A stretch of 63,481 nt of DNA, the filler included, from Octopus bimaculoides (Eukaryota): the NCBI RefSeq assembly GCF_001194135.2. It is 5 parts of 5 records of this genome, joined end to end, with 100 filler letters (N's around TTAATTAATTAA, not from the genome) between each part and the next. Parts side by side here need not be neighbours in the genome. Positions count along the whole stretch, not along the records: positions 1 to 27,148 come from NC_069005.1; positions 27,249 to 51,052 come from NC_068997.1; positions 51,153 to 56,513 come from NC_069006.1; 2 more parts are not named here. One strand, written 5' to 3'. The position numbers were made by a program, and so were the translations under genes. Under the pieces are notes generated by a model, which was not told the DNA's origin, made no database searches, and worked only from the letters and a program-made list of their open reading frames with translations. Positions 8,672-53,048 of this stretch are shown here, in pieces. Positions within the stretch are counted from its first letter, which is position 1; each line of letters starts with the position of its first letter.

Positions 8672-8707
8672 CTTTCTGTTGAAGAGCGAAGGCTTGAAAC
8701 GTAAAAG
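8672..8707 (+). ncRNA. Minimal type I hammerhead-like motif (CUGUUGA core variant)
   Basis: CTTT-CTGTTGA-A-GAGC-GAAG-GCTT-GAAA-CGT-A-AAAG; same repeat family as the copy at 17266. Confidence 0.5.
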
Positions 8708-9139
8708 ACTTTCTCACTTTCCCGAGTGTCAAACTAATACACCTGCTTGTTGTTCATACACTTGTCTTCGTCTATAGTTTTGTCTGTAAATTTCAACTCT
8801 ATCCATCCATCCATCCATCCATCTATCTATCTATCCATCCATCTATCTATCTATATAGATAGATAGATAGATATACATATTCATATGCATATGCACGAAG
8901 GGGTGTTTGTGTGCTTCCCCCCCTACACACACGCTCACCACTTGAAAACCGGTTCTGTTTTATTTTCGTCGCTGAGTTACAAATTAGCGTTTTGGAAAAG
9001 GAAGCCGATAGAATAAGCATCAAACCTTAAAAATAAGTACTGGGGTCCATTTGATCGATTAAGCCCGTCGATGCGGTGCCCCAGCATGGCCGCGTTCTAA
9101 TGATTGGAGCAAGTAAAAGATAACAGATCACAGATAAAA

Positions 9140-9300
9140 GATTAGCCTGGTGCAGCACAAAAGAGAGCTGAATCCTAAAAACAAGATAATAGGTGTCAAT
9201 GCTATAGGTGTTTCAATAATAAGCTACGGTTATAGCGATCTCATTTGGAAGCTAAGTGAATTAGCAGAAACTGTACGGGGAAACAACGTTCTGTAATGAA
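9140..9300 (+). mobile_element. R4/Dong-like LINE fragment
   Basis: LNPKNKIIGVNAIGVSIISYGYSDLIWKLSEL, resembling the NKIxAIN...SY....W...EL motif of R4/NeSL-type ORFs. Confidence 0.5.
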
Positions 9301-9758
9301 AGCATGTAACATTCAGCACCTAAAAGCCGACACAGAACGATTACATTTGTCATGAATACAACAGTAGAAAGCTATTGTAAGATATCTTACTGTAAGACTT
9401 CGAAAATATTGTACAAACAATGGAGGAGAATTATTAGATATAGCTAGAAAAACATGAATAAAACAACAACAGCAACGACAACAACAACTGCTTTTTTCTT
9501 TCCCCGTTTCGAGAAGGCTAACAAATGTATGAAACGAGGCTGCGATAACGGACGTTTGTGAGGAGAAAATGTAAAACAACAATAGGAAGTATTATAAAAC
9601 TATAATAAACGCTAATTTAACAACGAGACAACAAAATGTCAGGCTAGGATATTATCAAGATTGGCGAAAGCGGAAGTTTAGAAACCAAATAATCAGCAAT
9701 GGTTGTGAGAAATCTAGGCTGAAAGCTAAGACTGGAGGAGTGATTGTTATTATCGTCA

Positions 9759-9817
<59 letters not shown>

Positions 9818-10211
9818 GNNNNNNNNNNNNNNNNNNNNNNNNNNNNNNNNNNNNNNNNNNNNNNNNNNNNNNNNNNNNNNNNNNNNNNNNNNNNNNNNNN
9901 NNNNNNNNNNNNNNNNNNNNNNNNNNNNNNNNNNNNNNNNNNNNNNNNNNNNNNNNNNNNNNNNNNNNNNNNNNNNNNNNNNNNNNNNNNNNNNNNNNNN
10001 NNNNNNNNNNNNNNNNNNNNNNNNNNNNNNNNNNNNNNNNNNNNNNNNNNNNNNNNNNNNNNNNNNNNNNNNNNNNNNNNNNNNNNNNNNNNNNNNNNNN
10101 NNNNNNNNNNNNNNNNNNNNNNNNNNNNNNNNNNNNNNNNNNNNNNNNNNNNNNNNNNNNNNNNNNNNNNNNNNNNNNNNNNNTCTTCTTCTTCTTATTA
10201 TTATTATTATT

Positions 10212-10415
10212 AAGGCGGCGAACCGGTAGAATTATTAACACGTTCGGGAGTATTTCGTCCGTCAGTAATTTTGAGTTCAAATTCCGTCGAAGTCGAATTT
10301 ACTTTTCATCCTTTCAGGATAGATTAAATAAGTACCAGTTGGGCACTGGGGTCGATGTAATTGACTTACCCCCTCCCCAAAATTTCAGGCCTTGTGCCTT
10401 CAAAAGAAAGGATTA
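10212..10415 (+). mobile_element. Family B SINE
   Basis: aaggcggcga head, gagttcaaattcc B-box, ggggtcgatgtaat core; ends in att repeats. Confidence 0.75.
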
Positions 10416-10460
10416 TTATTATTATAGAAAGGATTCAAGTAACTCCTCCTGAAGATATAG

Positions 10461-10652
10461 AGTCAAAATTACAAGAAGAGTGCCATTGTTATCTAGTGAA
10501 CGATATTTCGACATCTTGTGTTACCTCAATCCTTTCTATATTAACCAAAATGAAGTAGATTGATAAATTTATTTTTTGAACCAGTTAAAGACACACAAGA
10601 TGTCGAAATATTGTTCACTAGATAACAATGGCATTCTTCTTTTAATTTTGAC

Positions 10653-10653
<1 letters not shown>
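10461..10653. repeat. 61-bp inverted repeat with 71-bp spacer
   Basis: Arms 10461-10521 and 10593-10653, three mismatches. Confidence 0.9.
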
Positions 10654-10654
<1 letters not shown>

Positions 10655-10688
<34 letters not shown>

Positions 10689-10870
10689 GTTTGACTTTTG
10701 CTTTCTATTTATACAAGTTGACTCCAGGTCTCACCCAGAGACCTCAAGAGACAACAAGTTAGAAGTTCATGTTGGTGTTATGCCTAGGGTGTCATATATT
10801 TGGTTTTGCACATAGTATTGTTCTGGAGAATGTTTAAGAAAACATAAGAAAATTTTACGTATTTTCCATA
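10655..10870 (-). mobile_element. Non-LTR retroelement 3' UTR with (AAT)n tail
   Basis: Unique-looking segment that runs on the minus strand directly into an (AAT)n tract; family assignment uncertain. Confidence 0.4.
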
Positions 10871-12964
10871 GGATGATGATGATGATGATGATGACGGTCA
10901 TGTCGAACGATGGGTTTGTGTCTGTGCATGTATGTGCGCGTATGTAATTGTTTATATGTTTTTAAAACGTGTATCTTACTCTGTGTGTGCGTGTGCGTGC
11001 GTGTTTGTGTATGTGCATACGCGCCAGTGTATATCTATATGATTATACGCGTTCCTCATTTGTATCATATAAACATCATATTTGGTTTATACTATAGATG
11101 TGTTGCACATACATACATACACACACACACACGTACATATATACATACATACATACATACATACTTACTTACATATTCATACAAAACTTCATCATTTTAA
11201 TATCACTTTAATCCAACTACGAACAAATGTACCGAGGAAAAGTGTATATTTTCGTACATTATTCAAAATGTCCACCACCAAGCTCAATACGTAATCTGCA
11301 TCATTTTACAATTTTAACACTGCTAAAATCGAATTGCACGAACATTTTTCATGCCAATATATTTAAATATCTTTGAATTGAGCTGTAGGAGGTGGAGTTC
11401 NNNNNNNNNNNNNNNNNNNNNNNNNNNNNNNNNNNNNNNNNNNNNNNNNNNNNNNNNNNNNNNNNNNNNNNNNNNNNNNNNNNNNNNNNNNNNNNNNNNN
11501 NNNNNNNNNNNNNNNNNNNNNNNNNNNNNNNNNNNNNNNNNNNNNNNNNNNNNNNNNNNNNNNNNNNNNNNNNNNNNNNNNNNNNNNNNNNNNNNNNNNN
11601 NNNNNNNNNNNNNNNNNNNNNNNNNNNNNNNNNNNNNNNNNNNNNNNNNNNNNNNNNNNNNNNNNNNNNNNNNNNNNNNNNNNNNNNNNNNNNNNNNNNN
11701 NNNNNNNNNNNNNNNNNNNNNNNNNNNNNNNNNNNNNNNNNNNNNNNNNNNNNNNNNNNNNNNNNNNNNNNNNNNNNNNNNNNNNNNNNNNNNNNNNNNN
11801 NNNNNNNNNNNNNNNNNNNNNNNNNNNNNNNNNNNNNNNNNNNNNNNNNNNNNNNNNNNNNNNNNNNNNNNNNNNNNNNNNNNNNNNNNNNNNNNNNNNN
11901 NNNNNNNNNNNNNNNNNNNNNNNNNNNNNNNNNNNNNNNNNNNNNNNNNNNNNNNNNNNNNNNNNNNNNNNNNNNNNNNNNNNNNNNNNNNNNNNNNNNN
12001 NNNNNNNNNNNNNNNNNNNNNNNNNNNNNNNNNNNNNNNNNNNNNNNNNNNNNNNNNNNNNNNNNNNNNNNNNNNNNNNNNNGGACTATATAGAAGAAAT
12101 GGTCTTTACGTTTCAAGGAGGGGAAATTCGATCTCATAAACTCCCCGCTTTCCAGCCAACCTGTTGTTCAGTTTAATGAGGTTCAGTTGAACAATCTCAT
12201 CCACGAGTAACTGCACCAGTCCAGTAGGGGGGAATTGGGCCCCAGCAGATGGAATGCTTTCATAACACCATCACCCGTCACCTTACCACGTGGGGGTAAT
12301 GATCGAAATCTCGGTATATGGGTTTCACACGCTCTGAACGAAAGAGACAATCAATGGAGTAAAAAAAAAATAGTAAAAAATGAACGAATTGATCTGATAA
12401 CCCCAAAGTAATAGATAACTGTGTTTCAGGAAGACTGTTTGGCCTTCCAGGCATAGGTGGGCTTGCGTCTCAGTCTGTAGATCTTATACCTGAGTTGCTT
12501 AAATGTTTTACGGATGCTGACATGGCAAGGAAAGTTCCAATTTATTTCTTGCTTCTTCATTCTTTCGACTTCTACGATTCGTTCGTCGTATTCGTTGCGT
12601 CACCATTTAAGAACGATGATTATTTTCTCGTTTTTTTTTTATCACAATTCATACGTGCAAACATATGCGCATACATACACACACATATTTGTGTGCCTGT
12701 ATGCGTAAACATGTGTGTATATGTATGTGTGTATGTATATATATAATATAAATTGGAGTTATATATATATATACACACACGTGTGTGTGTGATGTATGGA
12801 TGGATAAATACGCATTCTCAGCACACATGCGCAAACACAAGACAAATACACACACACAAACACACACACAGAGAAAGAAAGAGAGAGAGTGAAAGAACGA
12901 GAAAGACAGTGAGAGAGAAAAAATGAGAGATCAAAAATATATATATATAGGGAGAGGGAGAGAA

Positions 12965-13014
<50 letters not shown>

Positions 13015-28353: not shown

Positions 28354-28904
28354 CAGCTGACATAAGATCAATGTCTTTCATTCAGCCAGGATGCAAACAG
28401 GTGACAGGCAGGTTCGAGTCAAGAAGAAGTGCTCCAGTGATTGCTGGTTACGTTTCCCATAAATTATGATAATGTGTTTTTCGTTTATTTTTCATGATGG
28501 TTTTTGTATGTCTTTTATAATTTTTCAAGATTAAAAAAAACACAAAACAAAACATATTTTGATCGATCTATTTATTTTTCTGTCCATCGTCTGTTATGTG
28601 CTCTCTCTCTCTCTCTCTTTCTTTCTCTATCTCTCTCTCCCTCACGCACACACACACACCCTCTCTCTCTTCCTTCTCTTCCCTCTTTATCTCACTCTTA
28701 CCCCCTCACCCCCTCTCTCTCCATCCAGTAATCATCCGGACGTTCGCTGTATTACGCATCTGGCGATCTGTCAAAGTCAGTTTACATCTCGTCTCATCTT
28801 TGTATATGTGTGTATGTGTCTTTATGTTTGACACCTTCACCCCACACTGCTTGACAACCAGTGTTGGTTTGTTTACATCACTGTAACTTAGCGGTTTTCA
28901 ACTA

Positions 28905-29105
28905 TAGGTACAAGGCCTGAAATGTGGGTGAGGAGATGAGTCGGTTACATTAGCACCAGTACTCAACTGGTAGTTATTTTATCAGACTCCAAAAGATGAT
29001 CGACAAAGTCAACCTCTGCAGAATTTGAACTCAGTAAGGTGAAGCCGGAGGTGATGCCGTTAAACATTTTGTCCGGTATACTAACGATTCTGCCACCTCG
29101 ACACT
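28905..29105 (-). mobile_element. Family B SINE (diverged)
   Basis: caaagtcaacctctgcagaatttgaactcag core. Confidence 0.65.
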
Positions 29106-32089: not shown

Positions 32090-35000
32090 TATAGACATTG
32101 ATGGCATTTAGAAAATTACTATTTGTAAATCTCACAACGAGAGATATTTAGCAACAGTACTTTGGAGAACAGATTGTTTGCCAACATAACATGGCAGTCC
32201 TGGGTTAGGACGAATGTTGCTGTAATTTATCCCCTGGAGATATCGTCTCCAGCTGGCTATACGACACGATGTATGTCCTTATATTTTCGAACAAGGGAAT
32301 CTAGCACCCCAACTCAGCTCAAAACAATATCTGTGAAATCAAAGGGCGTGAAGCCGCCGCATGCCTCGACCTGCACACGCTGGCTGCTGCGACAGCTCGT
32401 ATGTGTCGGTCTCAGTCAATATTTGCACCACGACCAATGCAAATATTAGACTGAGACTGATGCATATGGGCCATCGCAGCAGTCACTGTGCTCCACGCAC
32501 GGGTCAAATGAATCCAGAAAAAAAGAGAAAGTCAAGAAAGAAATATTGCAATTCAAGAAAGGGCTTCATACTTTGAAATTTCACCAACAGAAATCTAGGT
32601 GACAACATTTTATGCCAAATGAATGAAAGAGAAGGCAAAATTCTATAGCCAGATTCAACATTAGAAAACTTGAAAGAACAAGATAATGCACAAGTAGTAG
32701 CCAAAGAGGATGCAAGAACCATATATAGGCCAATTGAAGATATACCTATGGCTAAAAGCCTTACGGAAATCAATGGTTAAACGTAACGGAAGGTTTGATG
32801 ATTGCTGCCAAAGATCCGACTGCCATCACATCATAAAGGATGGAACAAATTCAGAATGCAAGAGTGAAAGTTGTAAATAAACCATCAACTACTTTGTCTC
32901 TGTATTTCTGGAATTAGTGAAAACCTGAATACATCCACAAGCATAATATAGCAATGATGTACTTCTGCTGGAAAAATACGGTGGAGTTACAAGATCGAGA
33001 CGAGTTGAGGAGTGACAGGCTGTGGCGAAGCAAGGATGTGTGCCGTCTGAAACAACCCTTAAATTCGCCGCTCCAATTAACCCCGGATCCTATACAGGCT
33101 TATGCAGCAGACCCGAAAGTGCCGCATCAACAAAAGCGCAGCCCGGGGTGGACCACCAACATCACTTCTCTCTCTCATCTAACTACGCTACTGGTTGCAG
33201 CAGCATCAACCAAACGTGGTCACCGACAACAACTATGTCACCATCCTCCTGGACATGGCCATCCACACTGAGAGGAAGATAAAAGTTTGATATCGTTTTC
33301 GAAAAGTGATGCAAAAGTAACTAAATTAAACTACAATATTTCGTTTGTTTGGGTTTTATATAGCTGATGTTGGCCCAAATGAAAAACAAACAAACACTAA
33401 AAGACCCTTTATAATTGTCCAAACATCTTATCTCCACCCCTCGAAAAAATCCCATTAAAATATTTCCATTACAAATGATACTTTATAATCCATCATCTTG
33501 AATCAACATTTCTAATCATCATCAAACACAGATATGCGTTTAGATCCATTAGTTTCACATTTAGTGCCTTACAGAGAGAACATGATTGTCAATAAACTTT
33601 ACATATTTTAAAGTGCCAACAAGGTCACGTGGCTTCACCCTAAGTTGATTTACAAGCATGTATAATGAATTAAGTGTATTGATGATCAATTCTTTTATGA
33701 AATCTTTGATGAGTATTGATTAACAACGGTTTCATGAATATTTATTATTCTATGTTGTATATGTATCCATTGACTTAATCGATCATAGATCAATCCGATG
33801 AATAGCTGATTTCAAACTTCGGTGAATGCAATATCGAGAAGCTTCTACACGATCATTCGCTCTACTAGAAATAGAAACTAAATATACTTCAAATCACATC
33901 CTGACTCTTAAAAGCAAAAAAGGCAGGATGCATCGGATAATGTAGTCTTATCCTTAACGGAACGGGATGGTCACGGTTGTGAAGACTCTGAACTTAAGTT
34001 TCCTTGATCAGAGTCAACTTTAGGCAAAACAACAATAGGCGCAGCTGTGTGGTAAGAAGCTTGCTTCCCAACCACATGGTTCCGGAGTCAGTCCTACTGC
34101 AGCAAATTGGGCAAGTGTCTTCTTCTATAGCCCTAGGTCGACCAAATCCTTGTGAATGCATTTGGTAGCAAATAAATGTTTAGAAATTAGTTTTATAGAT
34201 ACTTCAAAATTCCTTTTTTTTTTTTTCGTTTATTACACATTAACTATGAAAAAATATCAGAGAGAGAAACCTAACTGTTTCTTGCTATAAATACTTCTAA
34301 AGCAAAANNNNNNNNNNNNNNNNNNNNNNNNNNNNNNNNNNNNNNNNNNNNNNNNNNNNNNNNNNNNNNNNNNNNNNNNNNNNNNNNNNNNNNNNNNNNN
34401 NNNNNNNNNNNNNNNNNNNNNNNNNNNNNNNNNNNNNNNNNNNNNNNNNNNNNNNNNNNNNNNNNNNNNNNNNNNNNNNNNNNNNNNNNNNNNNNNNNNN
34501 NNNNNNNNNNNNNNNNNNNNNNNNNNNNNNNNNNNNNNNNNNNNNNNNNNNNNNNNNNNNNNNNNNNNNNNNNNNNNNNNNNNNNNNNNNNNNNNNNNNN
34601 NNNNNNNNNNNNNNNNNNNNNNNNNNNNNNNNNNNNNNNNNNNNNNNNNNNNNNNNNNNNNNNNNNNNNNNNNNNNNNNNNNNNNNNNNNNNNNNNNNNN
34701 NNNNNNNNNNNNNNNNNNNNNNNNNNNNNNNNNNNNNNNNNNNNNNNNNNNNNNNNNNNNNNNNNNNNNNNNNNNNNNNNNNNNNNNNNNNNNNNNNNNN
34801 NNNNNNNNNNNNNNNNNNNNNNNNNNNNNNNNNNNNNNNNNNNNNNNNNNNNNNNNNNNNNNNNNNNNNNNNNNNNNNNNNNNNNNNNNNNNNNNNNNNN
34901 NNNNNNNNNNNNNNNNNNNNNNNNNNNNNNNNNNNNNNNNNNNNNNNNNNNNNNNNNNNNNNNNNNNNNNNNNNNNNNNNNNNNNNNNNNNNNNNNNNNN

Positions 35001-37646: not shown

Positions 37647-37760
37647 CGAGAGGGAGAGAACGATAGAGAGAGGGAGAGTGTGTGTGTGTGGGGGGAAAGG
37701 TAGTAAGAATGGGAGAGGAAATAAAGGAGTGAGAGAAACCACGCGCTTGTGTGTGTTTGA

Positions 37761-37803
<43 letters not shown>

Positions 37804-38236
37804 TATATGTGTTGATACACACACACACATATATAGATACATGTATATATGCATACCTATACATTTATATTTATGCATGTATATATGTATGTACGTGTGT
37901 GTATGTATGTATGTATGTATGTATGTATGTATGTATGTATGTATGTATGTATATATGCATGTATATTCGTACGTATGCATGCACACACATGTACACTCAT
38001 GCACGCACACATGCACACATACACAGATATATATANNNNNNNNNNNNNNNNNNNNNNNNNNNNNNNNNNNNNNNNNNNNNNNNNNNNNNNNNNNNNNNNN
38101 NNNNNNNNNNNNNNNNNNNNNNNNNNNNNNNNNNNNNNNNNNNNNNNNNNNNNNNNNNNNNNNNNNNNNNNNNNNNNNNNNNNNNNNNNNNNNNNNNNNN
38201 NNNNNNNNNNNNNNNNNNNNNNNNTTGCATACTTTA

Positions 38237-38320
38237 TTCCTACATATGTTTCAAAGGATTACAACCTGTGTGATCTATAGGGATCTTTGATATTAAAATT
38301 GTAACCTTCTCATCAGGGAA
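38237..38320 (-). ncRNA. Mirror-image type I hammerhead motif in the left arm of the palindrome
   Basis: Reverse complement of 38383-38466 with two substitutions in the distal stem II region; CTGATGA, GAAA and GUA are intact. Confidence 0.7.
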
Positions 38321-38382
38321 AGCATGGGAATCATCTTAAACGTAAGACATTAATGTCTTACGATTAAGATGATTCCCATGCT

Positions 38383-38466
38383 TTCCCTGATGAGAAGGTT
38401 ACAATTTTAATATCAAAGATCCCTATGGATCACACAAGTTGTAATCCTTTGAAACATATGTAGGAA
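38383..38466 (+). ncRNA. Type I hammerhead ribozyme motif with extended stem II
   Basis: TTCC-CTGATGA-GAAGG.TTACAA...GATCC-CTAT-GGATC...TTGTAA.T.CCTTT-GAAA-CATATGT-A-GGAA. Palindromic stem III (ACATATGT); GUA at 38460-38462. Confidence 0.75.
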
Positions 38467-38614
38467 TAAAGTATGCAATTATAACATGCGTTTTCTCCAA
38501 TCCTTAAATTCTTATATATATATATATATACATACATGAATCGTTTACATGCCAAGTAGTTAGAAACAGAGGGATACAGTTCTGCTGAAGTGCTGAATTC
38601 ATTCTAGATCCTAT

Positions 38615-39070: not shown

Positions 39071-39129
39071 CAAGAGTACGTTGTCGGAGATTCACACGTC
39101 GAAATCGACAGGAGAGTCCATCATATATA

Positions 39130-39188
<59 letters not shown>

Positions 39189-40079: not shown

Positions 40080-40119
<40 letters not shown>

Positions 40120-40659: not shown

Positions 40660-41760
40660 CTGGTTGCGAAAAGTATTTCAGGATATATTTGGTAATTCAA
40701 CAAAACAATGCTAATGTAGCAAAAGCTGAATGTATTCTAACAAAAATCTCTATACATGTTCTCGATAAGCTTCCTTATAAGATTATGAATCCACCTTCAT
40801 CTTCAATGACTTCTTCCATGCATGACCTGAATCGTTGACCTGCCTGCACTAAATGGTCTTTATTCGTTTTGGGCATTATCTAGATAATGGTGGTTTTCAG
40901 TGAACCTATGGTACAGCGAAGATGTTCATTAGTCTCTCTTTCGGCAACGTTCCAAACATAGTAGCCCAAGGGATTTAAATATGGCTATTGTAGAGATCAC
41001 ATGTTTAGTGCTACATGATCGTAAAGTTTATCTGACATCTAATCTTGAGTTACATGGTCCTTGTGAGTAGACGCTGAGGCTTGTTGAAACCCATATAGCC
41101 ATAGTTTGAGTACTTCACCCATTCAGAACTTAACAACGGTCTTTAGTGCCTCAACATATCCAGCAACTTTAATTTTAAAATCCTGTGGAAAGGTGTGAAG
41201 TAGCATGATATAACCTTCGTTACTCATCATTCTTCAAGCCATCACAATTGCTGGAAACCTAATATGCATTACTCTGGAGACATCAGAAGGTTCTGTACAT
41301 GAACAACTGTCATTTATCTTAATGCACTTTGGGGTTTCTTCGAAGTTTTTCTCTTCAGAGAAGTACCAAGCGTGACATGTCCGTGAATATCTTTGACCTT
41401 GTTAAGCAACCGCTTGGCACGAAGCAATCGGTTTTTCTATGTCTTTGTAGACATGACTTGGCCTCTCCTGAGTACATACGACTGGTATCGAATGTCCTCA
41501 TTTACCAGTTCTGATAGACCTCTCCTACACCTGAAGTTCTTTGGCGTGGCCTTCATTAATCTTCTAGGATCCTCACTGATAAGGTTTGGAATATGCAGGA
41601 TGAACTGCGGTGTCATTATAGTGTCCAAACTTTTAGAATGTTCGTTTTTTTCTCTGATACACTTGAAACGCTTCAGTTAGAGGCTTCCAATTTCATCTAA
41701 ATTTTACGTACAAGAGATCTTGCAACATTTAGAATGTTGGTAGTTTCTAAATTGCTGCGT
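40660..41760 (-). mobile_element. Decayed Tc1/mariner (maT/DD37D-like) transposon
   Basis: Minus-strand remnants VNEDIRYQSYVLRRGQ, LNPLGYYVWNVAERETN and FRSCMEEVIEDEGG; ends approximate. Confidence 0.8.
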
Positions 41761-43299
41761 TCTGCACAAAGGGCAACAACGACTTTATGTCATTTCATTT
41801 CTTGTGTTAGTATTTTATCTGCTATGGAAGATCAGAAAAGAAAAATATTTTAATTGGTTTGAAGAAAGTAATATACTGGTAATTAAGCATCCTCAAAAAC
41901 CTGTCACACCCTATAAATATAAATTTATCAATCTACCCACTTTTTTTCTCTCTCTCTCTATCTCTCTCTCTCTATCTCTCTCTATATATATCTTTATATA
42001 TATATAAACACACACACCCGCACACACCCACACATGTGGGGGGGGGGCGCGCACGTGTGTATGTATGTATATGAGTATGTGTGTATATATATCTCCATTC
42101 CTGAATATTTAGAACCTACGTTGTATAAAGTTGTTTTACATGTGGGTGTATCTTGCGTAAGGTTATTTTGCCAATAAAAAACACATGCACCGGCAATTAG
42201 CAAATCGATACCAAGGTTAATAGTTCGATCAGTCAATCAGCTGCTTTGTCAGTGTTCTTTCGTCGTCATTCACCAATGACATGCATATCAGTCCCTTTCT
42301 TCCCGAACTCCCTGCTTAAAATGACTTGTTACTAATCCTTTACTGGTTACCACCTATAATCTGAATTGTAAAAAAATTATCGCTTGCATTACTGACTTCA
42401 TCAAATGTTTTAAAATGTCGTCTGCAATTTCTTCTCCATTTAATCCAAGTTGTAGTTTGCTTCTTTTCTACATTTTAAATCCTTCTAATTTCTTTTAAAT
42501 GATTCCAAACTCTGTTGACTTTGAAATTTTCTACATGTGTTTGTAACAGGCAGAAATACTTGATGGACATTTTTTAATCAATTTCAAAGAGATTGCACCA
42601 GTCAGTTAATTAGAATCAACTGTAATCTCCTTGACGTTATTTGCCATTCTTTAATGGTTTAAGATGTCTTCCATAATACTCAGTTGTAATGTTGAAAAAC
42701 ATATAATTTAACAACGTTTTCGGTGAATTTGTTTTGTAATTTAACAGTTTGTCAGGAGAGGAGAAGAAGCAGTGTCCATGATTGACTTTGCCAGGCCACG
42801 CTCTAAGATTAATGTGATTGATACGATTGATGATTACAAGTTACATATTAATGATCAAAACTCTAAATACAAATAATATAAGACATTTACCAGTAGTTAT
42901 CTAGAACTGTAATGATTTATACTAGCAAATCTATCCATCTACGATGGAGGTATAGAATGAGGTAGGGAAGTCAGTCATAACAGCAGTATGTTTTGAGTAA
43001 TATGTAAATGGACTTGATAGTTTACTGGGTGATGTCTTAGAGAAATCATATTATTGTTGGTGATACAACATTCTATTGCAGCTATATGACAGGCGTTTGC
43101 GACTAAATGACACGTGATGACGATTCACTCCCGAACTGAAATAGGCCCCCAGCCTTTGTATCATGAATGGTTATGTGGACCACACCTAACGAAAGCCAGA
43201 GTTTCCTCCGACCACTACATAAGTGTTAAGAAAACATGCTATTTAGATATACTTTTATATTAGTTGATTACACTATTTTACGCTTGAATAGTTTTTTCT

Positions 43300-43525
43300 G
43301 CTGGTGATTAAGAATCTACAAAATTATTTATGAACATCATGTGTTTATACATTAGAAGAATAACTTATCTGGTGGTGATTAAGAATTTACGAAATTATCT
43401 ATGAACTTCATGTCTTCACATGGTAGTTAAGAGTCTACCAAGTTATCTATTGAACCTCAATAGCAGAGTAACTTACATGCTGATGGTTAAACGACTACGA
43501 AGTTATCTATGAACATCATATGTTC
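43300..43525. repeat. Four degenerate ~40-bp direct repeats with unequal spacers
   Basis: Consensus about tggtgattaagaatctacgaaattatctatgaacatcatg, near 43303, 43373, 43421 and 43481. Confidence 0.7.
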
Positions 43526-44076
43526 ACTCGGGAGTAGAAAAGCTCAGCTCTGGTACTTAAGTGGCTGCGGAATGATTTGTGGTAAAATGAGGAAGAGAAT
43601 AAGGATATGAGAGAAAAGAAATGTGAAACAGTGAGCACGAAGGAGTAATTTCAGAGTAAAAGAAAGAGCAGACGATAGAGGGAAAGAGAGAGAGAAAAAA
43701 ATAATGAGCGTGAGAGAATAGAATGATAAAGAAAATGTGAGACATTGAGGAGAAAGTGTGAGGAGGGCAGAATAAAATGAAAGAGAGAGGTAAAGAGAAA
43801 TAATTAGTGCGAGAAAGAGAGGGCAAAGATGTGTGTGTGTGTGCGTGTGTGTGTGTCTGTGTGTGTATGTGTGTATCGTAGATACTTAAACATATGTAAG
43901 TGGTTAGTGAGGGTATATGTGCGTAATAACATATGTATGTTTGCATCTATGTATGCGTGTGTGCACATGCATACATATGTATGCGTATATATATTGTATA
44001 TGTGTGTGTGTATGTACGTATATGTATGTATAAGTATATATATATATGTATATATAAGTGTATATATGTATATATA

Positions 44077-44122
<46 letters not shown>

Positions 44123-45119
44123 TATACATATGCGTGTGTGTATGTACGTATATGTATATATAAGTATATATATATATATACATATATATNNNNNNNNNNN
44201 NNNNNNNNNNNNNNNNNNNNNNNNNNNNNNNNNNNNNNNNATATATATAAGTATATATATATATATGTATATGTATATATATACTTATATATACATGCAT
44301 ATACATACACATATACACGCAAATGGTTATGCATATATCTATGCACACACATACGAACATACAAACACTGACACACATACATATATACACATACAAATAT
44401 ATATAAAAACAACTAACAGACAATTATCTGCAATTATGCTGCTACACTGCACAACTTGCCAATTTCCTCTTCTTTATTGCACTGCACATTGCACAATACA
44501 ACAGCAACAGCAGCAGCACCAACAACATCAATAACAACAACAACAACAACAACAGCAACAATAACAACAACAACAATAATAGCTGGAATAGCATTAGAAG
44601 TAACTGAGTCGACATTGATGTCGACAACAACAGCCACAGCCACAACAACAACAACAGTGACAAGAACAAGACCAGCAATAGTACAGCTTCATTAACTGCA
44701 GTCACGGCAACAACTACTGCAGCAGCAACAAGAACAAGATCAACAACAACAATAACAGCAATATCAAAAACAACAGCAGCAGCACCAGTAATACCAATTG
44801 CATTAACTACAGAAGCTGCAGCGGTTGCAACAACACTTTATGTCCAATTGCCTCATGTGCAGTAGTTTGCAACAACGGCAGCAGTGTTAAAAACTGCAAT
44901 ATCTGCACAATCTCAACAACAACAACACCGGCAGCATTAGCTGCAATGGCTGCAGTAACCGCAGCATCATTACCAGCTGAACTAACTTCAATAGTTACAC
45001 CAGCAACAACACTACAGAGTGCAATATCTACACTAAGTGCAGTACCTGTAAAAAAACAACACCAATACCAGCAGTAATAGGTGCATAAATTGCACAGTCA
45101 CAACAACAGCCCCTTTGAA

Positions 45120-45960
45120 AGACACACAAGATGGAGTAACAACAGTAGCTGTAACAGCAATAATAACAACGACACTAAAAGCTGTAACAGTGACACAACA
45201 TGCACAAATTGCAATAGGGGAAACCGCAACAACAACATCAGCAGTCACACTGACTCCACAATCTCAATAACAACAACAATTTTCAGCTGCACCAGGTGCA
45301 ATAAAGGCAGTAGCTGCAACAACAACAACAACACTATAAAAACTATAACAGTGACACAACATGCATTAACTGCAGTAAGTGAAACAACCACAGCATCAAC
45401 AGCAACAGCTGCACTAAATCCACAATCTCAACAACAATGTTAACTTCCAGCTGCACCATGTGCAATAACGGCAGTAGCTGCAACAACAACATTATATACT
45501 GTAACAGTGACACAACATTCACTAACTGCAATTAGTCAGAGAACAACAGCAACATCAACAGCCACAGATGCACTAACTCCACAATCTCAACAGCAACAAC
45601 GATTTTCTGCTGCACCAGGTGCAATAACGGCAGTAGCTACAACAACATCAATAACAACATTATAGACTGTAGCAGTGACACAACATGTACTAACTGCAAT
45701 TGGTGAAACTACAACAACATCAGCAGCCAGAACTGCACTAACTCTACAATCTCAACAACAACAACGTTAACTTCCAGCTGTACCAGGTGCAATAACGGCA
45801 GTAGCTGCAACAACATCACTATAAACTATAACAGTGACACAACGTGCACTAACTGCAGTAAGTCAAACAACAACTACCGCAGCGACAGCAACAACTGCAT
45901 AACCTCAAACTTAACGACAGCAAAAATATTACTTGCACCAGGTGCAACAACAACAGTTGC
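45120..45960. repeat. About 160-bp minisatellite within an (ACA/GCA)-rich tract (44430-46100)
   Basis: The marker gYaccaKgtgca recurs at 45289, 45453, 45612, 45780 and 45935. Confidence 0.85.
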
Positions 45961-46100
45961 TGTAATTACGGCTCCAGTAGTAACAACTTCAGTCGATTCA
46001 CAATCTTCACAATAAATATAACTACTGCAACAGTTGCATTAGCTACACTGACTTCAACAACACTACAAAGAGTAACAGCTGCATTTACTGCACACATTTG

Positions 46101-46325
46101 CTGCACACATTCCCAAAAATGAAAAAAAGCCCTGGCTGGACACCATTTTGCCAGTGACAATGACGTCATAGATGCTGTAGGAAGTTTCTTGGAGTCTCAA
46201 ACAAAAGAGTTCTTCTACGCCGGGATAATGGCGCTTCAGCGCCGCTGGAGAAAGTGTTCAGCCATCGAGGAGGACTATCATGTTTTGTTTTTTTTGAGGC
46301 TCGAGACTTTTCATACACCCCTCGT
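46101..46325 (+). mobile_element. Mariner (DD34D-like) 3' fragment
   Basis: FPKMKK-LAGHHFASDNDVIDAVGSFLESQTKEFFYAGIMALQRRWRKC, followed by the TIR-like acttttcatacacccctcg-TA. Confidence 0.8.
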
Positions 46326-46332
46326 ATATACA

Positions 46333-47562
46333 CAGGGTGTAACAGGTAAATTTGGACAAGTTTCTAATTGTATAGATTTTGTTTGGAGTCTCAACTTGAA
46401 TATTCACTTGTACTATTTTTTATTTCTGATTGAACAAATTATGAATGTTAGCAAAGAATTAAACCGTAGAAGCGTAATTGCCGAATTATTCCTCGCCGGC
46501 AAAAGTGCTGGGGACATTGTTTGACCCACAAAGTAAGTCAAATCTATTGTTTTCATGGTTGTAGCCAGTTTGAAGAAAAATCGAGATCTTCAGAGAAAGC
46601 CTCACAGTCCTCGCAGTGACCGAAAAGGCACACCTCGCTTCTTGGCAGATCGACTGAATCGAACCCATCAAAATCGATGGCAAAGTTGGCTCAGGATCGA
46701 GGAATCAGTAAAATGACCATTTCTAGGGCTGTGAGACAAGACCTCCATATTAAATCGTATATGAGGAGACACCATAACATTCTAACTACCTGCTCCAAAA
46801 CCATTTGAGCTGAAAGAAGTTCCAAAGTTCTTAGACGTCTCAAATATCGTGGCGGAGACGTCTGCATCTTCGTAGATGAAAAGAAGTTCATGGTAGACGA
46901 AGTTACGAACCGTCAAAACTCACGAGTGATAGCGTACGACCCTTCTCAAGTTCTTTCAGCTATGCATAGCAAGAATCAAGCTTTCATTGTGGTCTTTGGA
47001 GCTGTTGCAAGTGATGGGAAATTGATGCCTCCTCATTTCATTAAAGTGGGTCTTAAAATCAACACAACATGGTATCTCAATCTTAGAAGTTTGTTGCCAT
47101 GGATTAGGAAGCACTATGATGCAAATCGAGTCATGTTTGTACAGTACTCCGCATCCGCCCATTCTTCGAAAACAGTACAAGAATTTTGAAGAGGGAATTT
47201 CCCGTGTTTGTCCCTAAAGATGTCTGGCGCTCCAGCTCGCCAGATTTGCATCCGTGTGATTTTTGGCTATAGGAGGCAGTTGAAGTAATATCCAACGCAA
47301 CTTCTCACTACTGTATGTCTTCACTAAAGGCTTCGATCAAGCGAGTATTCGGTAAAACGAAAAAGAAAGAAATGGCTAAGGTATGGGCATCATTTCGTAA
47401 ATGGATTGAACAGGTAAAGAAAGCAAATGGCGGTCACATTGAGCTGAAAAAAGTGCTAAACTCTCCAGAATGAATTGGCATAAACATAAAATTTGCAGTG
47501 TTTGATTTATACCAATTATAATAAAGATATTTAAATGGTCCCAATTTACCTGTTACACCCTG
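46333..47562 (+). mobile_element. Full-length decayed Tc1/mariner (maT/DD37D-like) transposon
   Basis: TIRs cagggtgtaacaggtaaatt / aatttacctgttacaccctg; TA on the right, CA on the left. Transposase remnants DEKKFMVDEVTNRQNSR, VFGAVASDG, AHSSKTVQ, SSSPDLHPCDF, NGGHIE. Confidence 0.9.
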
Positions 47563-49294
47563 TATGTGTGTGTTTGGGGGTGGGTGTATACATATATGCT
47601 CCAACGGGACAGTCTGTTGGAACAAGTACCCTTCACAGTCGATTTTTTTCAGCGTGGCTCGTCTGCTTGTTAACGTTTAGTCTCTCTTGCATACGGGATG
47701 GTCCTTTACAGATTTCCAGTTGTTCGGGTGTTTAGATTAAATCAGGCTGGATAGTTCTTTTAGGAATAACAAAGTAGTATTTATTTTGATGTCTTCGTAA
47801 TTTTGATATCTTCGTATTTAAAATGTTGTCGTTTGGTTATGAAGAAGTTTTTCTTTTCACTAAAGAATGTTCATGGAAATTTTTGTTGCTGAAGTTCAGG
47901 ATGGATTAGGTGATATTAACACTTGCAATATTTTGTTCTTTCGAATATAATTCAGAGATTGATAATGCGGCCGTGTTGCTTTGCTTCATGTGAACTTATG
48001 GTTTTAAGTTCAGTCTTTTGAAGGTGTCCTCCCACGTTCTACAATGTGAGTTAGGGAATTGTGTGTCTTCGGGCCTTAAACCGTGACTCAATAAATTATT
48101 TTTTTCATAAATTACCAAAATGTCATAACACTTTATTCTGACAATTTCAGTTACGTCCTTTGTTGTTTAAATTGACGGATTTTGGAGATAAATGGCAGCA
48201 GAAATGTTTTCCAGGGTTATAGGGCTTATTAAATGATTTAGCACACCAACCACCTGCGGTGATGCTCCTCATATTCGTCATGCAGCTATAGCTTACTTTT
48301 AACTTTAGCCGACTAAATACTTTATAATATTCCTGCCTTGTGGAGAAATGTTTCTGAATCAGGCTTAGAAAATTCTTGTCAATATTGAGTTTTACATTGA
48401 AGAAGTATGGGAGGTTGAATTAGATTATATTACTTGTATGGTAATATTTATTTATTTACTTTATTCAGGCAATAAAACAGCTACTATTCATTACTAACAC
48501 CACCACTACTACAACCTCTACTGCGACTGCGACTGCTACTATTACAACCACCGCCGCTATCATCCCCACTAGCACCACCACCACCAACAACAACAACAAC
48601 AACGGCAAAATCATTTCGTCTTTACTTTCACTTTTCGTTTCTTCCTCCATCTTTCCAATATTCTCTTTCTCTCCCTTTTGCTCTTTCTTCCGTTCTCTCT
48701 TTCTCTCTCTTCCCGTCTCTTTCCTCTTACTCCTACCCTCCCCCTCTGATTTTATTTCTTTCATTCTTTGTCCTCATGTTTATTGGAGTTTTTTTTCAAA
48801 GTTTTTGCTGACTTTCGTTTTCTGTCTTTGTTTCTCTTTCTTTCACTTTCTTTCTCTTTTTTCACTTTTTCCTTTCTTTCTTTCTTTCTCTCTTTCTTTC
48901 TTTCTTTCTTTCTTTCTATCTTTCTCTCTTTCTTTCTTTTTTTCTCTTTTCCATTTCTTTACTGTTCTCATTCCTCTCTTTTCTTTTCGTTTAATTTCAT
49001 TCATGTTTTATAATCCCCATTCATTCCTATTCCGACAATATTGCCTTCCGTAGATTCCTCCTCCTCCTCCTCCTTCTTCAAATTAATTTCCTTAATTCAT
49101 TTCTCTTCCTTTTGTCTTTGTCTTTATTTCTATCTTCATTTATTTCCTTCTTTTTCTTTCTCTTCCCCTTTCTTTAATCCTTTTTGCCCCTTTTCATTTC
49201 CTTTCTCTCATCCTTCATTTCTTACAATATTTATCTATTTCTTTTCTTCTTCCTTTCCTTTTTATCTTCAGTGTTGTTGTTGTTCTTGTTGTTG

Positions 49295-49407
49295 TTGTTA
49301 AGACAGAAATCTGGCAAAATTGTTTGAACGTCGGGCAAAATACTTTGCAATGTTTCTGGCCGCTCTTTCTGTTTTGAGTTCAAATACCACCGAGGTCAAT
49401 TTTGCCT
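49295..49407 (+). mobile_element. Family B SINE 5' part, cut by a gap
   Basis: ttttgagttcaaataccaccgaggtcaattttgcct. Confidence 0.6.
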
Positions 49408-50243
49408 NNNNNNNNNNNNNNNNNNNNNNNNNNNNNNNNNNNNNNNNNNNNNNNNNNNNNNNNNNNNNNNNNNNNNNNNNNNNNNNNNNNNNNNNNNNNN
49501 NNNNNNNNNNNNNNNNNNNNNNNNNNNNNNNNNNNNNNNNNNNNNNNNNNNNNNNNNNNNNNNNNNNNNNNNNNNNNNNNNNNNNNNNNNNNNNNNNNNN
49601 NNNNNNNNNNNNNNNNNNNNNNNNNNNNNNNNNNNNNNNNNNNNNNNNNNNNNNNNNNNNNNNNNNNNNNNNNNNNNNNNNNNNNNNNNNNNNNNNNNNN
49701 NNNNNNNNNNNNNNNNNNNNNNNNNNNNNNNNNNNNNNNNNNNNNNNNNNNNNNNNNNGTTACATCATCAATAAATGTAATACAAGTAAAAAAGAGAACT
49801 TTTTTTTTATCTTCGCTTTGTAGTCTTTATTCACTTATTCCGTCTTTTGTTTTTTGCTAATGAAAAACACTTCAAAAGTTCGATTTCCACTGAATAAACT
49901 AATTACAACCGTCCTCGATTTACACACCACTCGCTCCACATGATTTTTTTTATAACACAGTGTTAGGTTTTTGTTGTTTTTTGTTTGTTTTCTTTTTGTC
50001 TACAGAAACGCTACATCGTCGTTTCATTTCTTTGATAGTTTGTTAGATCACATTCAAAACAAACGCTTCAGTGAATCATATTTTTTCAAAATTTCGTGAA
50101 ATATTTTTGAAACTATATAACAGAGTTTCAAATGTCATGAAAGTTGATTTCTCTGGAAATGAATTACAGTATATTAATCATCTTCAAAATGGATAAATAT
50201 TCTTTGTTTATGGGTTAACAACGCTACCAATAGTTTCATGTAG

Positions 50244-50342
50244 AGAAAAATCTCTCAACAAGTTATCAAGCCTGCCACATGGGAACTCGTCTTCATCTTG
50301 GATGAGAAAATTAAGGTTTTCTATGTGCCTGTGCCAATCCAT
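50244..50342 (+). CDS. Candidate 99-bp phase 0-0 internal exon of an unidentified gene
   Basis: tttcatgtAG|AGA...CAT|GTAAGT; open frame RKISQQVIKPATWELVFILDEKIKVFYVPVPIH. No homology recognised and no partner exons found. Confidence 0.3.
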
Positions 50343-50402
50343 GTAAGTATTATGTATGCATGAATGTATCAATGTATGTGTGTGTGTGTGTGTGTGCGCG
50401 CG

Positions 50403-50448
<46 letters not shown>

Positions 50449-50452
50449 CTCA

Positions 50453-50497
50453 CAACTGCCTGATGATCGTTTACATGAAACTCTGAGTAACAGTTTG
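50453..50497 (+). ncRNA. Decayed type I hammerhead-like motif
   Basis: CAACTG-c-CTGATGA-TCGTTTACAT-GAAA-CTCTGAGT-A-a-CAGTTTG. Stem III ACTC/GAGT and stem I AACTG/CAGTT are intact; stem II is weak. Confidence 0.45.
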
Positions 50498-50787
50498 TAC
50501 AGTCTTTTCAACTTGTGGTATTCAAACACTTTTCTCACCCCCCTCCTTGTTTTTTGTGTATGTACTTGCATGTGTGTGTGTGTGAGTCTGTGCGTGTGAT
50601 CCTGCCTAACTGAACCTCCCCCGCCTCTTGAATGCTTGTCTCCTTTCTTAGCTTTTTCTCACGCCTTTGCCACTTCTCCAGAACCACTTTGTCTCATCTG
50701 CACTCGGATTATCATTGAAGCTTCGCGAATTCTACCATCATGGATCTTACTGCACACTGCTCTGCGCGCGCGCGTCTGTGTGCGTGT

Positions 50788-50826
<39 letters not shown>

Positions 50827-51221
50827 TGTGTGTGTGTGTGCTCGCGCGCGCACATGTGTGTATGTAGCAAAACGAATAAAATAACAAGATAACATGTACA
50901 AGCCAGAAGAAGAAAGAGCCTGTTTTATATATTCTTTTAGTTTTGAAAAATGTTGTGAAATTAATTTGTCGTAATTAGTCATATTACTAATGATGGCACC
51001 AGAGAAGAAACACATTTTGTGGCTATATATGTGTGTTTATGGATGTCTGTGTNNNNNNNNNNNNNNNNNNNNNNNNNNNNNNNNNNNNNNNNNNNNTTAA
51101 TTAATTAANNNNNNNNNNNNNNNNNNNNNNNNNNNNNNNNNNNNNNNNNNNNATATATATATATATATATATATATATACACGTATCTATATTCAGCTAT
51201 GCGCGTTTGTACATTTATATA

Positions 51222-51800
51222 CGAGATGGTATCAAAAAGTTCCCGGACTAGTTGTGTTTAAAAAAAAATAACGTATTTACATGAGTTTTAGCACCATCTG
51301 CTTCGAAATAGTCACCTTGCGCAGCAATGCACCGGTCCCGGCGTTCCTGTCACTTTTGGAATCCAGCCTGGAGGACGTTTTCCGTAAGGAAGTCGAGAAT
51401 CTTCCGCGATTTGTTCTGGATCTCGACAACGGCGTTAAAACGGTGACCACTGAGCTGTATTTTCATCTTGAGGAAGAGATGGAAGTCCACAGGCGCTAGA
51501 TCTGGCGAATAGGGTGGGTGCAGAAGCGAAACCATGTTGTTTTGGGCGAGAAACTTCACGAGTGTGGAGACCTTGGTGACAGAGTGCATTGTGGTCCTGA
51601 AGAGTCCAATTCCTCACGCTCCACAGATCCGGTCCCGTTCACAGGATGTCCTCCTTCAAACGCTTCAAAACGTCGTTGATCGTCCTCCGACGAACCTCGT
51701 GCAACAAGCTGACGGAATTACCAGTTGTGACGCTCGTGGTAGGTCTTCCAGATCGCTCATCGTCCAATGACTGAAAGAAATGAAAGATAGAAGACTCGCT
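51222..51800 (-). mobile_element. Truncated mariner (DD34D-like) element
   Basis: LLHPPYSPDLAPVDFHLFLKMK, GHRF and RDRCIAAQGDY. TIR-like TA-cgagatggtatcaaaaagttcccggact at the left end. Confidence 0.85.
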
Positions 51801-51981
51801 TTTGCTGGAACTAAGTTTCATTAATTCATTTATATGTCTCGATATTACTCAGAGTGTCGAGGAATTTATGCGAATCAACAGTTATTCAACAATGCGTACA
51901 CATATGTGAGGTGTGTGTGTGTGTATACATACATACATACATACATAAGTACGTATGTACGTATGTATGTATGTATGTATG

Positions 51982-52031
<50 letters not shown>

Positions 52032-52959
52032 CCTATCTATCTATCTCTTTATGTATACATATACATATATATACATATACAATATTAAATTTAAATGTTG
52101 AAGTGAATCAAAGGTTTTTGGGGGTTTTTAAATGGCTTATAAATACCTTCCACGCTGCAATTGTTTTTGTTTCAGCACCCGATCTCAGATCAGGTCACTC
52201 TCTATGCAAGTACATCTCCGTAATATGTATATGTGTGTGTGTGTGGGTGTGTGTATGTATTTATGCATGTATGTTTGTATGTATGTATATGTGTGTATAN
52301 NNNNNNNNNNNNNNNNNNNNNNNNNNNNNNNNNNNNNNNNNNNNNNNNNNNNNNNNNNNNNNNNNNNNNNNNNNNNNNNNNNNNNNNNNNNNNNNNNNNN
52401 NNNNNNNNNNNNNNNNNNNNNNNNNNNNNNNNNNNNNNNNNNNNNNNNNNNNNNNNNNNNNNNNNNNNNNNNNNNNNNNNNNNNNNNNNNNNNNNNNNNN
52501 NNNNNNNNNNNNNNNNNNNNNNNNNNNNNNNNNNNNNNNNNNNNNNNNNNNNNNNNNNNNNNNNNNNNNNNNNNNNNNNNNNNNNNNNNNNNNNNNNNNN
52601 NNNNNNNNNNNNNNNNNNNNNNNNNNNNNNNNNNNNNNNNNNNNNNNNNNNNNNNNNNNNNNNNNNNNNNNNNNNNNNNNNNNNNNNNNNNNNNNNNNNN
52701 NNNNNNNNNNNNNNNNNNNNNNNNNNNNNNNNACTGCTTACACCTTCCCTCTCTTTAGAAGTAATTGTCCCTTTGCTATCACCACTAGATAAGAAACAAT
52801 AGAATTCTGAGACAGTTAAAACTTTTGTCTAGAATCAATTACTAGCCTGATAGACCCTGCTATGTCAAGATGGACTTATATATTCTTCCTCTGCTCTCTC
52901 CCACTTGGTTTTAATATGTTGCCACATTTGTAATATGTCTTTTTTTCTACATTTTTTCG

Positions 52960-53048
52960 TGCAGCTGAAGATTGCTCTTCATATTGCATTTAAGGTAATA
53001 CTCACATTACTTAAATAAATTGAAGTAGCATGAAACGTGCGTACTGCA
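52960..53048 (+). ncRNA. Type I hammerhead ribozyme motif with long stem II
   Basis: TGCAG-CTGAAGA-T.TGCT.CTTCA...ATTTAA.GTAAT-actcac-ATTAC.TTAAAT...TGAAG.T.AGCA.T-GAAA-CGTGCGT-A-CTGCA. 5-bp stem I; GUA at 53041-53043. Confidence 0.7.

Follow-up and report, generated by a model that had tools for sequence, protein, structure and literature searches.

Hammerhead-like motifs in Octopus bimaculoides DNA probably mark the 3′ ends of several Penelope-like retroelement families

Minimal hammerhead ribozymes (min-HHRs) of metazoan Penelope-like elements (PLEs) have type I topology, a helix I of 4–5 bp, an unpaired base after A9, a G10.1–C11.1 pair, a palindromic 15.2–16.2 segment and a loop 3 that is palindromic or absent. 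They occur in thousands per genome and in several heterogeneous families, mostly as single motifs, and some form opposite-strand pairs 100–700 bp apart (PMC4209133). PLEs of the Hydra clade carry a C-terminal endonuclease (EN+) and include Hydra-1_Obim of Octopus bimaculoides; their hammerheads are 3′-terminal, with a near-palindromic stem III of 3–4 bp and a stem II that has U-U or G-U at its base, and the elements insert into (TA)n and leave inverted, 5′-truncated copies (Craig et al. 2021, PMC8557442). The same source considers that PLE hammerheads may be passengers. Non-LTR retrozymes of animals consist of tandem arrays of at least two hammerhead units and give rise to circular RNAs (PMC7229834; bioRxiv 10.64898/2026.07.22.740005). 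The Poseidon element PAc of Anolis inserts at AT-rich targets, where both strands are cut and extended; RNA-seq ends are reported to be absent from its hammerhead site, and core mutants inserted normally in vitro (Frangieh et al. 2024, PMC11167929).

The window analysed here is the whole 63,481-nt stretch of Octopus bimaculoides DNA, in which an earlier note had listed eight type I hammerhead-like motifs. A direct check of the sequence found all eight where that note had placed them (Table 1). In every one, stem I, core, stem II, GAAA, a short stem III and GUA or GUC follow in type I order, as had been claimed. Since 38237(-) and 38383(+) are the two arms of one palindrome, the eight real motifs represent seven independent insertions; stem III was self-complementary or nearly so in all seven, in line with its earlier description as very short and often palindromic. 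The CUGANGA core ascribed to all eight was present, with GAAA and NUH in type I order, in six (26008, 16926, 38237, 38383, 50453 and 52960), whereas 8672 and 17266 both read CUGUUGA, a hammerhead-derived but non-canonical core from which the invariant A6 is absent. At 22624(-) the initial half of a core occurs without GAAA, and this site was left out.

Table 1. Positions of the hammerhead-like motifs and associated elements in the window
Feature	Position	Strand	Remarks
Family A1 minimal hammerhead-like motif	8672..8707	+	CUGUUGA core (A6U); predicted cut after 8703
Family A1 motif	17266..17302	+	CUGUUGA, with the A6 position at 17274; cut predicted after 17297
Family A2 minimal hammerhead	26008..26042	+	Intact core; predicted cut after 26038
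Decayed A2 copy, core broken	20111..20228	-	Between (TA)n tracts; absent from the earlier note
Family B hammerhead	16926..16975	-	Predicted cut at 16933; truncation at the 5′ edge of stem I
Second family B copy, inverted, 5′-truncated, tail only	16976..17161	+	Faces the hammerhead-bearing copy head to head
Family C hammerhead, left arm	38237..38320	-	Palindrome 38225-38478; adjoins N gap
Family C hammerhead, right arm	38383..38466	+	(TA)n lies 50 nt downstream; cut predicted after 38462
Family D, decayed Hydra-type hammerhead	50453..50495	+	Predicted cut after 50489; architecture compared with published table by eye
Family E, Hydra-type hammerhead	52960..53048	+	(TA)n lies 40 nt downstream; cut predicted after 53043; table comparison by eye
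Broken Hydra-clade PLE remnant	20406..21776	-	RT, thumb, linker; ends near endonuclease start at (TA)n and gap
Second small Hydra-type PLE fragment	48159..48452	-	Thumb/linker region; tblastn E 2.7e-09 with P0003
Strict-descriptor matches	26008, 16930-16975, 38237, 38383, 52960	+, -, -, +, +	

The window was scanned with a strict descriptor (core CUGANGA, stem I of at least 3 bp, stem II of at least 4 bp), composed post hoc with the motifs and the published min-HHR description already known, and 100 block-wise dinucleotide shuffles of the window served as control. Five matches were obtained against a shuffle mean of 0.05 and a maximum of 1, and none of the 100 shuffles reached five; the similar density in shuffled sequence that the earlier note had named as counter-evidence was not found. 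With position 6 left free there were six matches against 0.14, and the loosest setting gave 11 (all eight motifs and three poor ones) against 1.03. A simpler earlier descriptor, with no unpaired base after A9 and at least one loop base in stem III, detected the two palindrome arms only. U3–A8 core variants numbered zero in the descriptor scan of the window.

If the motifs were chance matches in AT-rich, repeat-rich DNA, one would understand why the Rfam scan proposed earlier gave 0 matches in the window to any of 4227 families at gathering score, and why single motifs mostly neither fold as a hammerhead nor outdo their shuffles as monomers (z +1.56 to -2.40 for seven motifs). The weak Rfam matches listed (150 of 284) were microsatellite-driven miRNA matches with no hammerhead among them, and 50453 satisfied the loose descriptor only. 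Against a chance origin, the observed count was equalled by 0 of 100 shuffles in each of five CUG-core settings. The stem covariation that had been suggested as a check was also detected: stem I, which is not fixed by the search pattern, covaried over 11 distinct flank pairs, with 25 of 33 cells pairing against 17.8 on permutation (p 0.003, the related rows being non-independent), and the majority letters of family B repair its stems. Chance is hardly credible as the general explanation and is ruled out for the motif set; it could still hold for one weak motif.

A microsatellite or gap followed the cut site at 40–119 nt in 7 of 7 independent motifs, one of the seven being a gap, against a background median of 350 nt (rough p about 5e-5 with a post hoc threshold). 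Two head-to-head inverted arrangements were present in the window, in which repeats were compared by masked self-BLAST. The architectures match the published min-HHRs and Hydra-clade PLE hammerheads, which upholds the attribution in the earlier note to PLE-type minimal type I hammerheads from several families. The motifs are real type I hammerhead-like sequences, and we consider it very likely that they mark the 3′ ends of at least five families of Penelope-like retroelements. Their short, 5′-truncated and mostly decayed copies, single or head to head, would have been made from RNA and placed into (TA)n-type microsatellites.

Compared by eye, families B–E match the Hydra-clade hammerhead table and share the (TA)n preference, but they are identical to none of its rows, and the published hammerhead of Hydra-1_Obim does not occur among the CTGANGA sites of the window. 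The motif at 38383 combines a long stem II with an 8-nt stem III that is a perfect palindrome; 52960 has a 5-bp stem I and a long stem II with U-U closing. Both of these stems II are much longer than most table entries. In 50453 a near-palindromic 9-nt stem III is combined with a stem II of 1–2 pairs at most and a mismatch beside the core.

Reads were examined at two of the seven insertions, 17266 (A1) and 16926 (B), and depth was high at both. In family B the majority letters of related reads repaired stem II and made stem III a perfect palindrome of 8 nt, the stem-repairing letter making up about 98% of the DNA depth at 16938 (stem III) and about 95% at 16964 (stem II). The inverted structures at 16860-17161 and 38225-38478 could alternatively be MITE-like fold-back DNA elements whose fixed inverted repeat carries a hammerhead by accident, or assembly artefacts. 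In keeping with this, 16855-17045 folds as a long hairpin (z -10.95), and the palindrome at 38 kb, seen in the assembly sequence, borders an N gap. However, past 16975 the family B contigs ran into different 5′ sequence in 84 and 101 contigs from two organisms, so the inverted arm is no fixed part of family B. The family C arms form a 127-nt inverted repeat with zero spacer in which 3 of 127 positions are mismatched, and both 3′ ends face (TA)n, like published inverted PLE copies. Taken together, we judge a fold-back or artefactual origin very unlikely. A fixed-TIR (MITE) element at 16926 was rejected as a candidate, the loose ends of reads at 16975 ruling against it, and opposite-strand joints at 16975 were not taken to show recurrent inversion, since the inverted repeat in the reference itself is able to yield them.

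The PLE reported earlier at 20.5–21.7 kb is a genuine element, extending over 20.4–21.8 kb, but a broken remnant full of stops and frameshifts. Its putative assignment to the Hydra clade comes from motif checks and a by-eye likeness to Hydra-1_Obim, in which 40 of 60 residues of one stretch are identical by hand count. Microsatellite borders it at both ends, as in (TA)n insertion. In the linker before the C-terminal endonuclease, which aligns to the linker region of P0027, CxCx5C is visible with the third Cys replaced; the DKT/RWK-bearing region is missing. A library HMMER scan with the RT fragment of the remnant gave 1,591 matches. The 13 matches at least 600 aa long all carry the DKT/DKS of the Hydra type (DKG in 0 of 13), with the full CxCx5C in eight and RW[KR]A in seven. 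Pfam recognised nothing in the RT fragment of the window, and a word-indexed protein search with it returned no match. The CTGATGA at 20449(-), which directly follows the PLE frame, belongs to the coding sequence of the remnant and was discarded as a hammerhead. No hammerhead is attached to this remnant. None of the window's motifs connects to a PLE reading frame or is tied to an intact PLE, in which they differ from the min-HHRs of PLEs. Mobilisation by PLEs like this one had been proposed; that this particular element moves the hammerhead-bearing copies found no support, given the stops and frameshifts throughout and the absence of the Hydra-1_Obim hammerhead from the CTGANGA sites of the window. 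Among 16 metagenome loci, one (L006) contains a family-A-type motif that follows, at a distance of about 680 nt, a frame with an RT (Pfam RVT_1, E 5e-08) plus a nuclease-like part; in the remaining 15 no link to a Hydra-type ORF was seen, and the 13 long homologues gave no tblastn match in any of the 16. The L006 frames had no match in the window, which thus holds no family A parent.

The motifs at 8672, 17266 and 26008 had been described as one short repeat family. They are related but form two subfamilies, because 8672 and 17266 are 76% alike and either is 64–65% like 26008; the decayed A2 copy is 74% like the 26008 copy. The A1 copy with the 8672 motif is ~180 nt long (about 8640-8822) with microsatellite on either side, and that with 17266 runs from about 17200 to a 10-N gap at 17378. 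No family A copy in the window reaches about 250 nt, a size equally compatible with a short non-autonomous element and with truncation. An unpaired base after A9, G10.1–C11.1 and a palindromic stem III, features shared with the min-HHRs of Cervera and De la Pena (2014), were found in all three motif-bearing copies; in 26008 the unpaired base is A and stem III has no loop. Family A differs from those min-HHRs in a stem II of only 4 bp, and the available text of that paper reports U3–A8 without mention of the U that A1 has at position 6.

At 17266, A1 was very deep in DNA and RNA reads, with an RNA depth at the motif of about 2,290 and 2,150 in two runs. Depth dropped toward the 5′ end, and the loose ends past the 3′ end were (TA)n; the reads show monomers that are dispersed and run out in (TA)n. 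The abundance of A1 in RNA and the short, non-coding units would suit non-LTR retrozymes, in which transcripts of short non-coding tandem units are cut by paired hammerheads and circularised. Retrozyme families can moreover include numerous solo monomers and originate from the ends of PLEs (Li, Clavereau and Pollet 2026, bioRxiv 10.64898/2026.07.22.740005). Short non-coding units, a type I hammerhead, kinship to PLE ends and possibly dispersed monomers are common to retrozymes and the present copies. The defining tandem arrays and circular RNAs, however, were seen neither in the window nor in the reads: none of the six tandem arrays in the window (period at least 40) lies at a motif, and the A1 loose ends are (TA)n rather than the start of a next unit. 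In ordinary RNA-seq from a single study, without RNase R treatment and with about 6% of each run read, no RNA ends piled up at the predicted A1 cut site 17297, no site in the reads at A1 was rich in molecule ends, and 0 of the 15 joints listed (of 44) tie the A1 3′ end or cut site to the A1 start. Helix I is 3–5 bp against the canonical 6. The circular-RNA retrozymes put forward earlier are thus unlikely. That some copies are host-adopted ribozymes cutting host transcripts is highly improbable: A1-like sequence is plentiful in RNA, but both read directions are equally deep at A1, the predicted cut site has no pile-up of ends, and the window copies differ from their family majority by private changes that break the structure.

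We return to copying from the 3′ ends of PLE RNAs. From established PLE biology, the PLE protein (RT plus GIY-YIG nuclease) would nick AT-rich repeats and reverse transcription would start from the 3′ part of the PLE RNA, so a hammerhead near the RNA 3′ end would be the piece kept most often. Extension from both cut strands would produce the head-to-head pairs. The ribozyme of a parent family would be a weak cutter, acting as a dimer by way of its palindromic stem III or with help from protein. The lone copies in the genome are predicted to lack activity for the most part and to ride in read-through transcripts as passengers.

Family A1 likely multiplied while its core was crippled. Its core change is predicted to cripple cutting in what is a very abundant family, one that looks young and lineage-restricted with roughly 10^4–10^5 copies, which suggests that A1 spread without a working ribozyme. 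Our more specific proposal is tentative, possible and somewhat short of probable: A1 would be a young, roughly 190-nt Penelope-derived element that, once its core had changed to CUGUUGA, multiplied within a single octopus-like lineage until there were tens of thousands of copies; this change would refold the motif into a plain hairpin. PAc, likewise without RNA-seq ends at its hammerhead site, is an intact autonomous element with an active, protein-assisted core, whereas A1 is a natural core variant without a known parent frame.

The overall arrangement, with hammerheads at PLE ends, is already described (Cervera 2014; Craig 2021), and the general pattern is ordinary for PLE-bearing animal genomes. 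No published description of these families was found in a literature search to which most subscription papers were closed (octopus or cephalopod hammerheads, A6U/CUGUUGA cores, octopus non-autonomous Penelope), and the present work chiefly adds undescribed repeat families to the octopus genome. The evidence suggests one unusual point, a young and very abundant A1 family with an altered ribozyme core. Comparing a young, high-copy, core-mutated family with its intact sister would allow the role of PLE hammerheads to be tested on natural sequences. If our reading of A1 is true, the family would be natural, genome-scale proof that catalysis by the PLE hammerhead is dispensable for mobilisation, or even hinders it, and the intact-core sister family A2 would be its built-in control.

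All eight type I hammerhead-like motifs that the earlier note had placed in the window (named here by start position: 8672, 17266, 26008, 16926, 38237, 38383, 50453 and 52960) were found where it put them. The window has a G+C content of 33% and contains 7,631 N in 31 gaps; gaps or simple repeats mask about 37% of it, a make-up that marks it as animal scaffold DNA. Compared with 100 local dinucleotide shuffles, a strict-core descriptor gave 5 matches (0.05 in shuffles), the same descriptor with position 6 free gave 6 (0.14) and the loosest one, which included all eight motifs, gave 11 (1.03). These counts, reached in none of the 100 shuffles, come from a descriptor that admits the published minimal form and was composed once the motifs were already known; a simpler first descriptor picked up just two. 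The shuffled control proposed in the note placed the motif count above chance at all three settings. The Rfam check, also proposed there, returned no hammerhead, neither at gathering score nor among the 150 listed of 284 weak matches. Folded as monomers, the motifs were not unusually stable, in keeping with the view that such motifs require a partner. The hammerhead-like feature is real and of a known kind.

Since 38237(-) and 38383(+) are the two arms of a single palindrome, differing at 3 of 127 positions, there are seven insertions and not eight. The CUGANGA core ascribed to every motif held except in 8672 and 17266, which read CUGUUGA, with U at core position 6 (A6U). The short repeat family to which these two and 26008 had been assigned splits into two subfamilies, A1 (8672 and 17266, 76% alike) and A2, which joins 26008 with a decayed copy (74% alike); likeness between the subfamilies is 53-65%. 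The others are families B (16926), C (the palindrome), D (50453, with a decayed stem II) and E (52960). In each of the seven insertions stem III was fully or almost self-complementary, and the predicted cut site was followed by a pyrimidine-rich tail and, at 40-119 nt, by a microsatellite or gap, against a background median distance of 350 nt. Two head-to-head inverted arrangements with outward-facing 3' ends were observed. None of the tandem arrays of period at least 40 in the window contains any motif, the 167-nt tandem repeat included.

Further elements are collected in the table. The short element between microsatellites is possibly a deleted hammerhead copy. Both dispersed repeats are presumably SINE-like, and one copy of the 130-nt repeat adjoins the family B copy at the latter's 3' end. 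We take the short frames to be remnants of Tc1/mariner transposases and LINE reverse transcriptases; a Pfam scan at E 0.05, which covered three of the four, matched none of these.

Paired copies, repeats and frames in the window
Feature	Position	Remark
Head-to-head arrangement 1	38225-38478	palindrome
Head-to-head arrangement 2	16860-17161	tail-only copy joined to hammerhead copy at 16975/16976
Decayed A2 copy	20111-20228(-)	
Penelope-like element remnant	20406-21776(-)	
Short element between microsatellites	22470-22655(-)	CTGATGA, without GAAA; 45-51% likeness with copies of family A
Dispersed repeat, ~130 nt, five copies	16716-16846, 3765-3894, 13900-14029, 34063-34166, 56887-57016	74-82% to first
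Second dispersed repeat, 9 pieces	17485-17656, 10252-10419, 17760-17878, 28895-29058, 1200-1303, 5730-5813 and others	
Tandem repeat, ~167 nt, 4.3 copies	45182-45874	Thr/Asn-rich low-complexity stretch
Long array of 10-nt unit	about 61500-63000	
Short frames	46123-46524 (+), 46809-47189 (+), 53548-54045 (-), 58699-59100 (+)	

Two RNA runs (one study) and DNA contigs from organisms A and B were mapped to 16860-17377 at 80% likeness. Summed depth over family B reached 288,000 in A and 105,000 in B, compared with about 35-60 and 14-23 for single contigs; this corresponds to roughly thousands of copies in both, as an order of magnitude, depth not being copy number. When the family's majority letter is put in at 16938 and at 16964, a perfect 8-nt palindrome and a stem II of 7 bp are recovered; 16926 is thus a degenerate copy from a family whose hammerhead is intact. 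Other sequence lay 5' of 16975 in 84 and 101 contigs from the two organisms, which indicates that the inverted arm is not fixed in the family. Depth over A1 was about 3,000,000 in A (10,000 records aligned, more than half at ≥95% identity across the stretch) vs about 1,000 in B, which points to a recent burst, of the order of 10^4-10^5 copies. Coverage of A1 thinned out in the 5' direction, and the loose ends carried (TA)n past the 3' end as well as at varying positions on the 5' side, as expected of dispersed monomers. With no motif in a tandem array, the suggested retrozymes (tandem hammerhead units giving circular RNA) are unsupported.

No row with another letter at 17271-17277 occurred among the 40 listed (70 more exist), a listing that retained rows backed by far fewer reads, and the 15-contig loose-end consensus runs through CUGUUGA; U6 is therefore likely the A1 majority, with A6 as a possible minority. 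RNA depth over the A1 motif was about 2,290 and 2,150 in the two runs, equal in both mate directions. At no site of the mapped stretch did at least one fifth of RNA molecules begin or end; this negative is weak, as the depth sufficed for A1 alone, the family predicted to be dead. Separately, 216 and 166 RNA reads shared a loose 5' end at 17285 (agreement 0.98), probably from a single, well-expressed A1 copy that has lost the first half of the core through an internal deletion.

The family A pattern matched 16 loci in metagenome contigs, all with A6 although the pattern allowed U. Stem I, left unconstrained by the pattern, paired in 25 of 33 cells against 17.8 on permutation (11 distinct flank pairs), in line with the stem covariation that the note had proposed to look for. 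In one locus (L006) the motif lies downstream of two frames: a reverse transcriptase (RVT_1, E 5e-08), and one that contains a CxxC linker and that we take, from its motifs, to be nuclease-like, Pfam giving no nuclease match; the other 15 loci lacked such a link. In L014 and L015 the motif lies ~2 kb from an uninterrupted, presumably Rho GTPase-like frame. L016, the sole match in gene-dense, bacteria-like DNA, has a poorly paired stem I and is probably a chance match.

The Penelope-like element (PLE) named in the note as a possible mobiliser is real, but is a probable Hydra-clade remnant broken by stops and frameshifts. It aligns with a 713-aa library protein over residues 140-537, and its CxCx5C-type linker is missing one Cys. 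In one stretch it has 40 of 60 residues in common with the published Octopus family Hydra-1_Obim (hand count), a likeness that makes an octopus the probable host. All 13 long homologues carry DKT or DKS and none DKG; a Pfam scan of the fragment gave no match. Since it stops near the nuclease start and is without a hammerhead, it shows what sort of partner the genome harbours, not which element mobilises the motifs.

The consulted part of Cervera and De la Pena 2014 (PMC4209133) describes minimal hammerheads located in the terminal repeats of PLEs. An animal genome holds thousands of them, in several heterogeneous families; most are single, some form opposite-strand pairs, and even dimers have low activity. 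Family A shows these hallmarks. Extracts of Craig et al. 2021 (PMC8557442) give Hydra-clade hammerheads a near-palindromic stem III of 3-4 bp, and describe their PLEs as inserting into (TA)n and as occurring in inverted copies truncated at the 5' end. Judged by eye, this build is shared by 16926, 38383, 50453 and 52960, none of which is identical to a row listed in those extracts. The present families were not found in the literature searched, a search with Repbase, Dfam and Lunse 2017 outside it.

That literature held no data on A6U activity; for A6C, published extracts report strongly reduced Mg2+-dependent cleavage with activity left in Mn2+. In the predicted folds of both A1 copies, the GAAAC segment is paired with U6 and U7 and the motif becomes a simple hairpin; from this and the A6C data the A1 ribozyme is predicted to be crippled. 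For PAc, the Poseidon element of Anolis, the consulted part of Frangieh et al. 2024 (PMC11167929) reports that both strands are cut and extended, that AT-rich DNA is preferred, that core mutants still insert in vitro and that RNA-seq has no ends at the hammerhead site. By analogy with PAc, the most likely course is that a PLE protein cleaves (TA)n tracts and makes a copy of the 3' portion of its own RNA, which would leave short copies retaining the hammerhead, and use of both cut strands would give head-to-head pairs.
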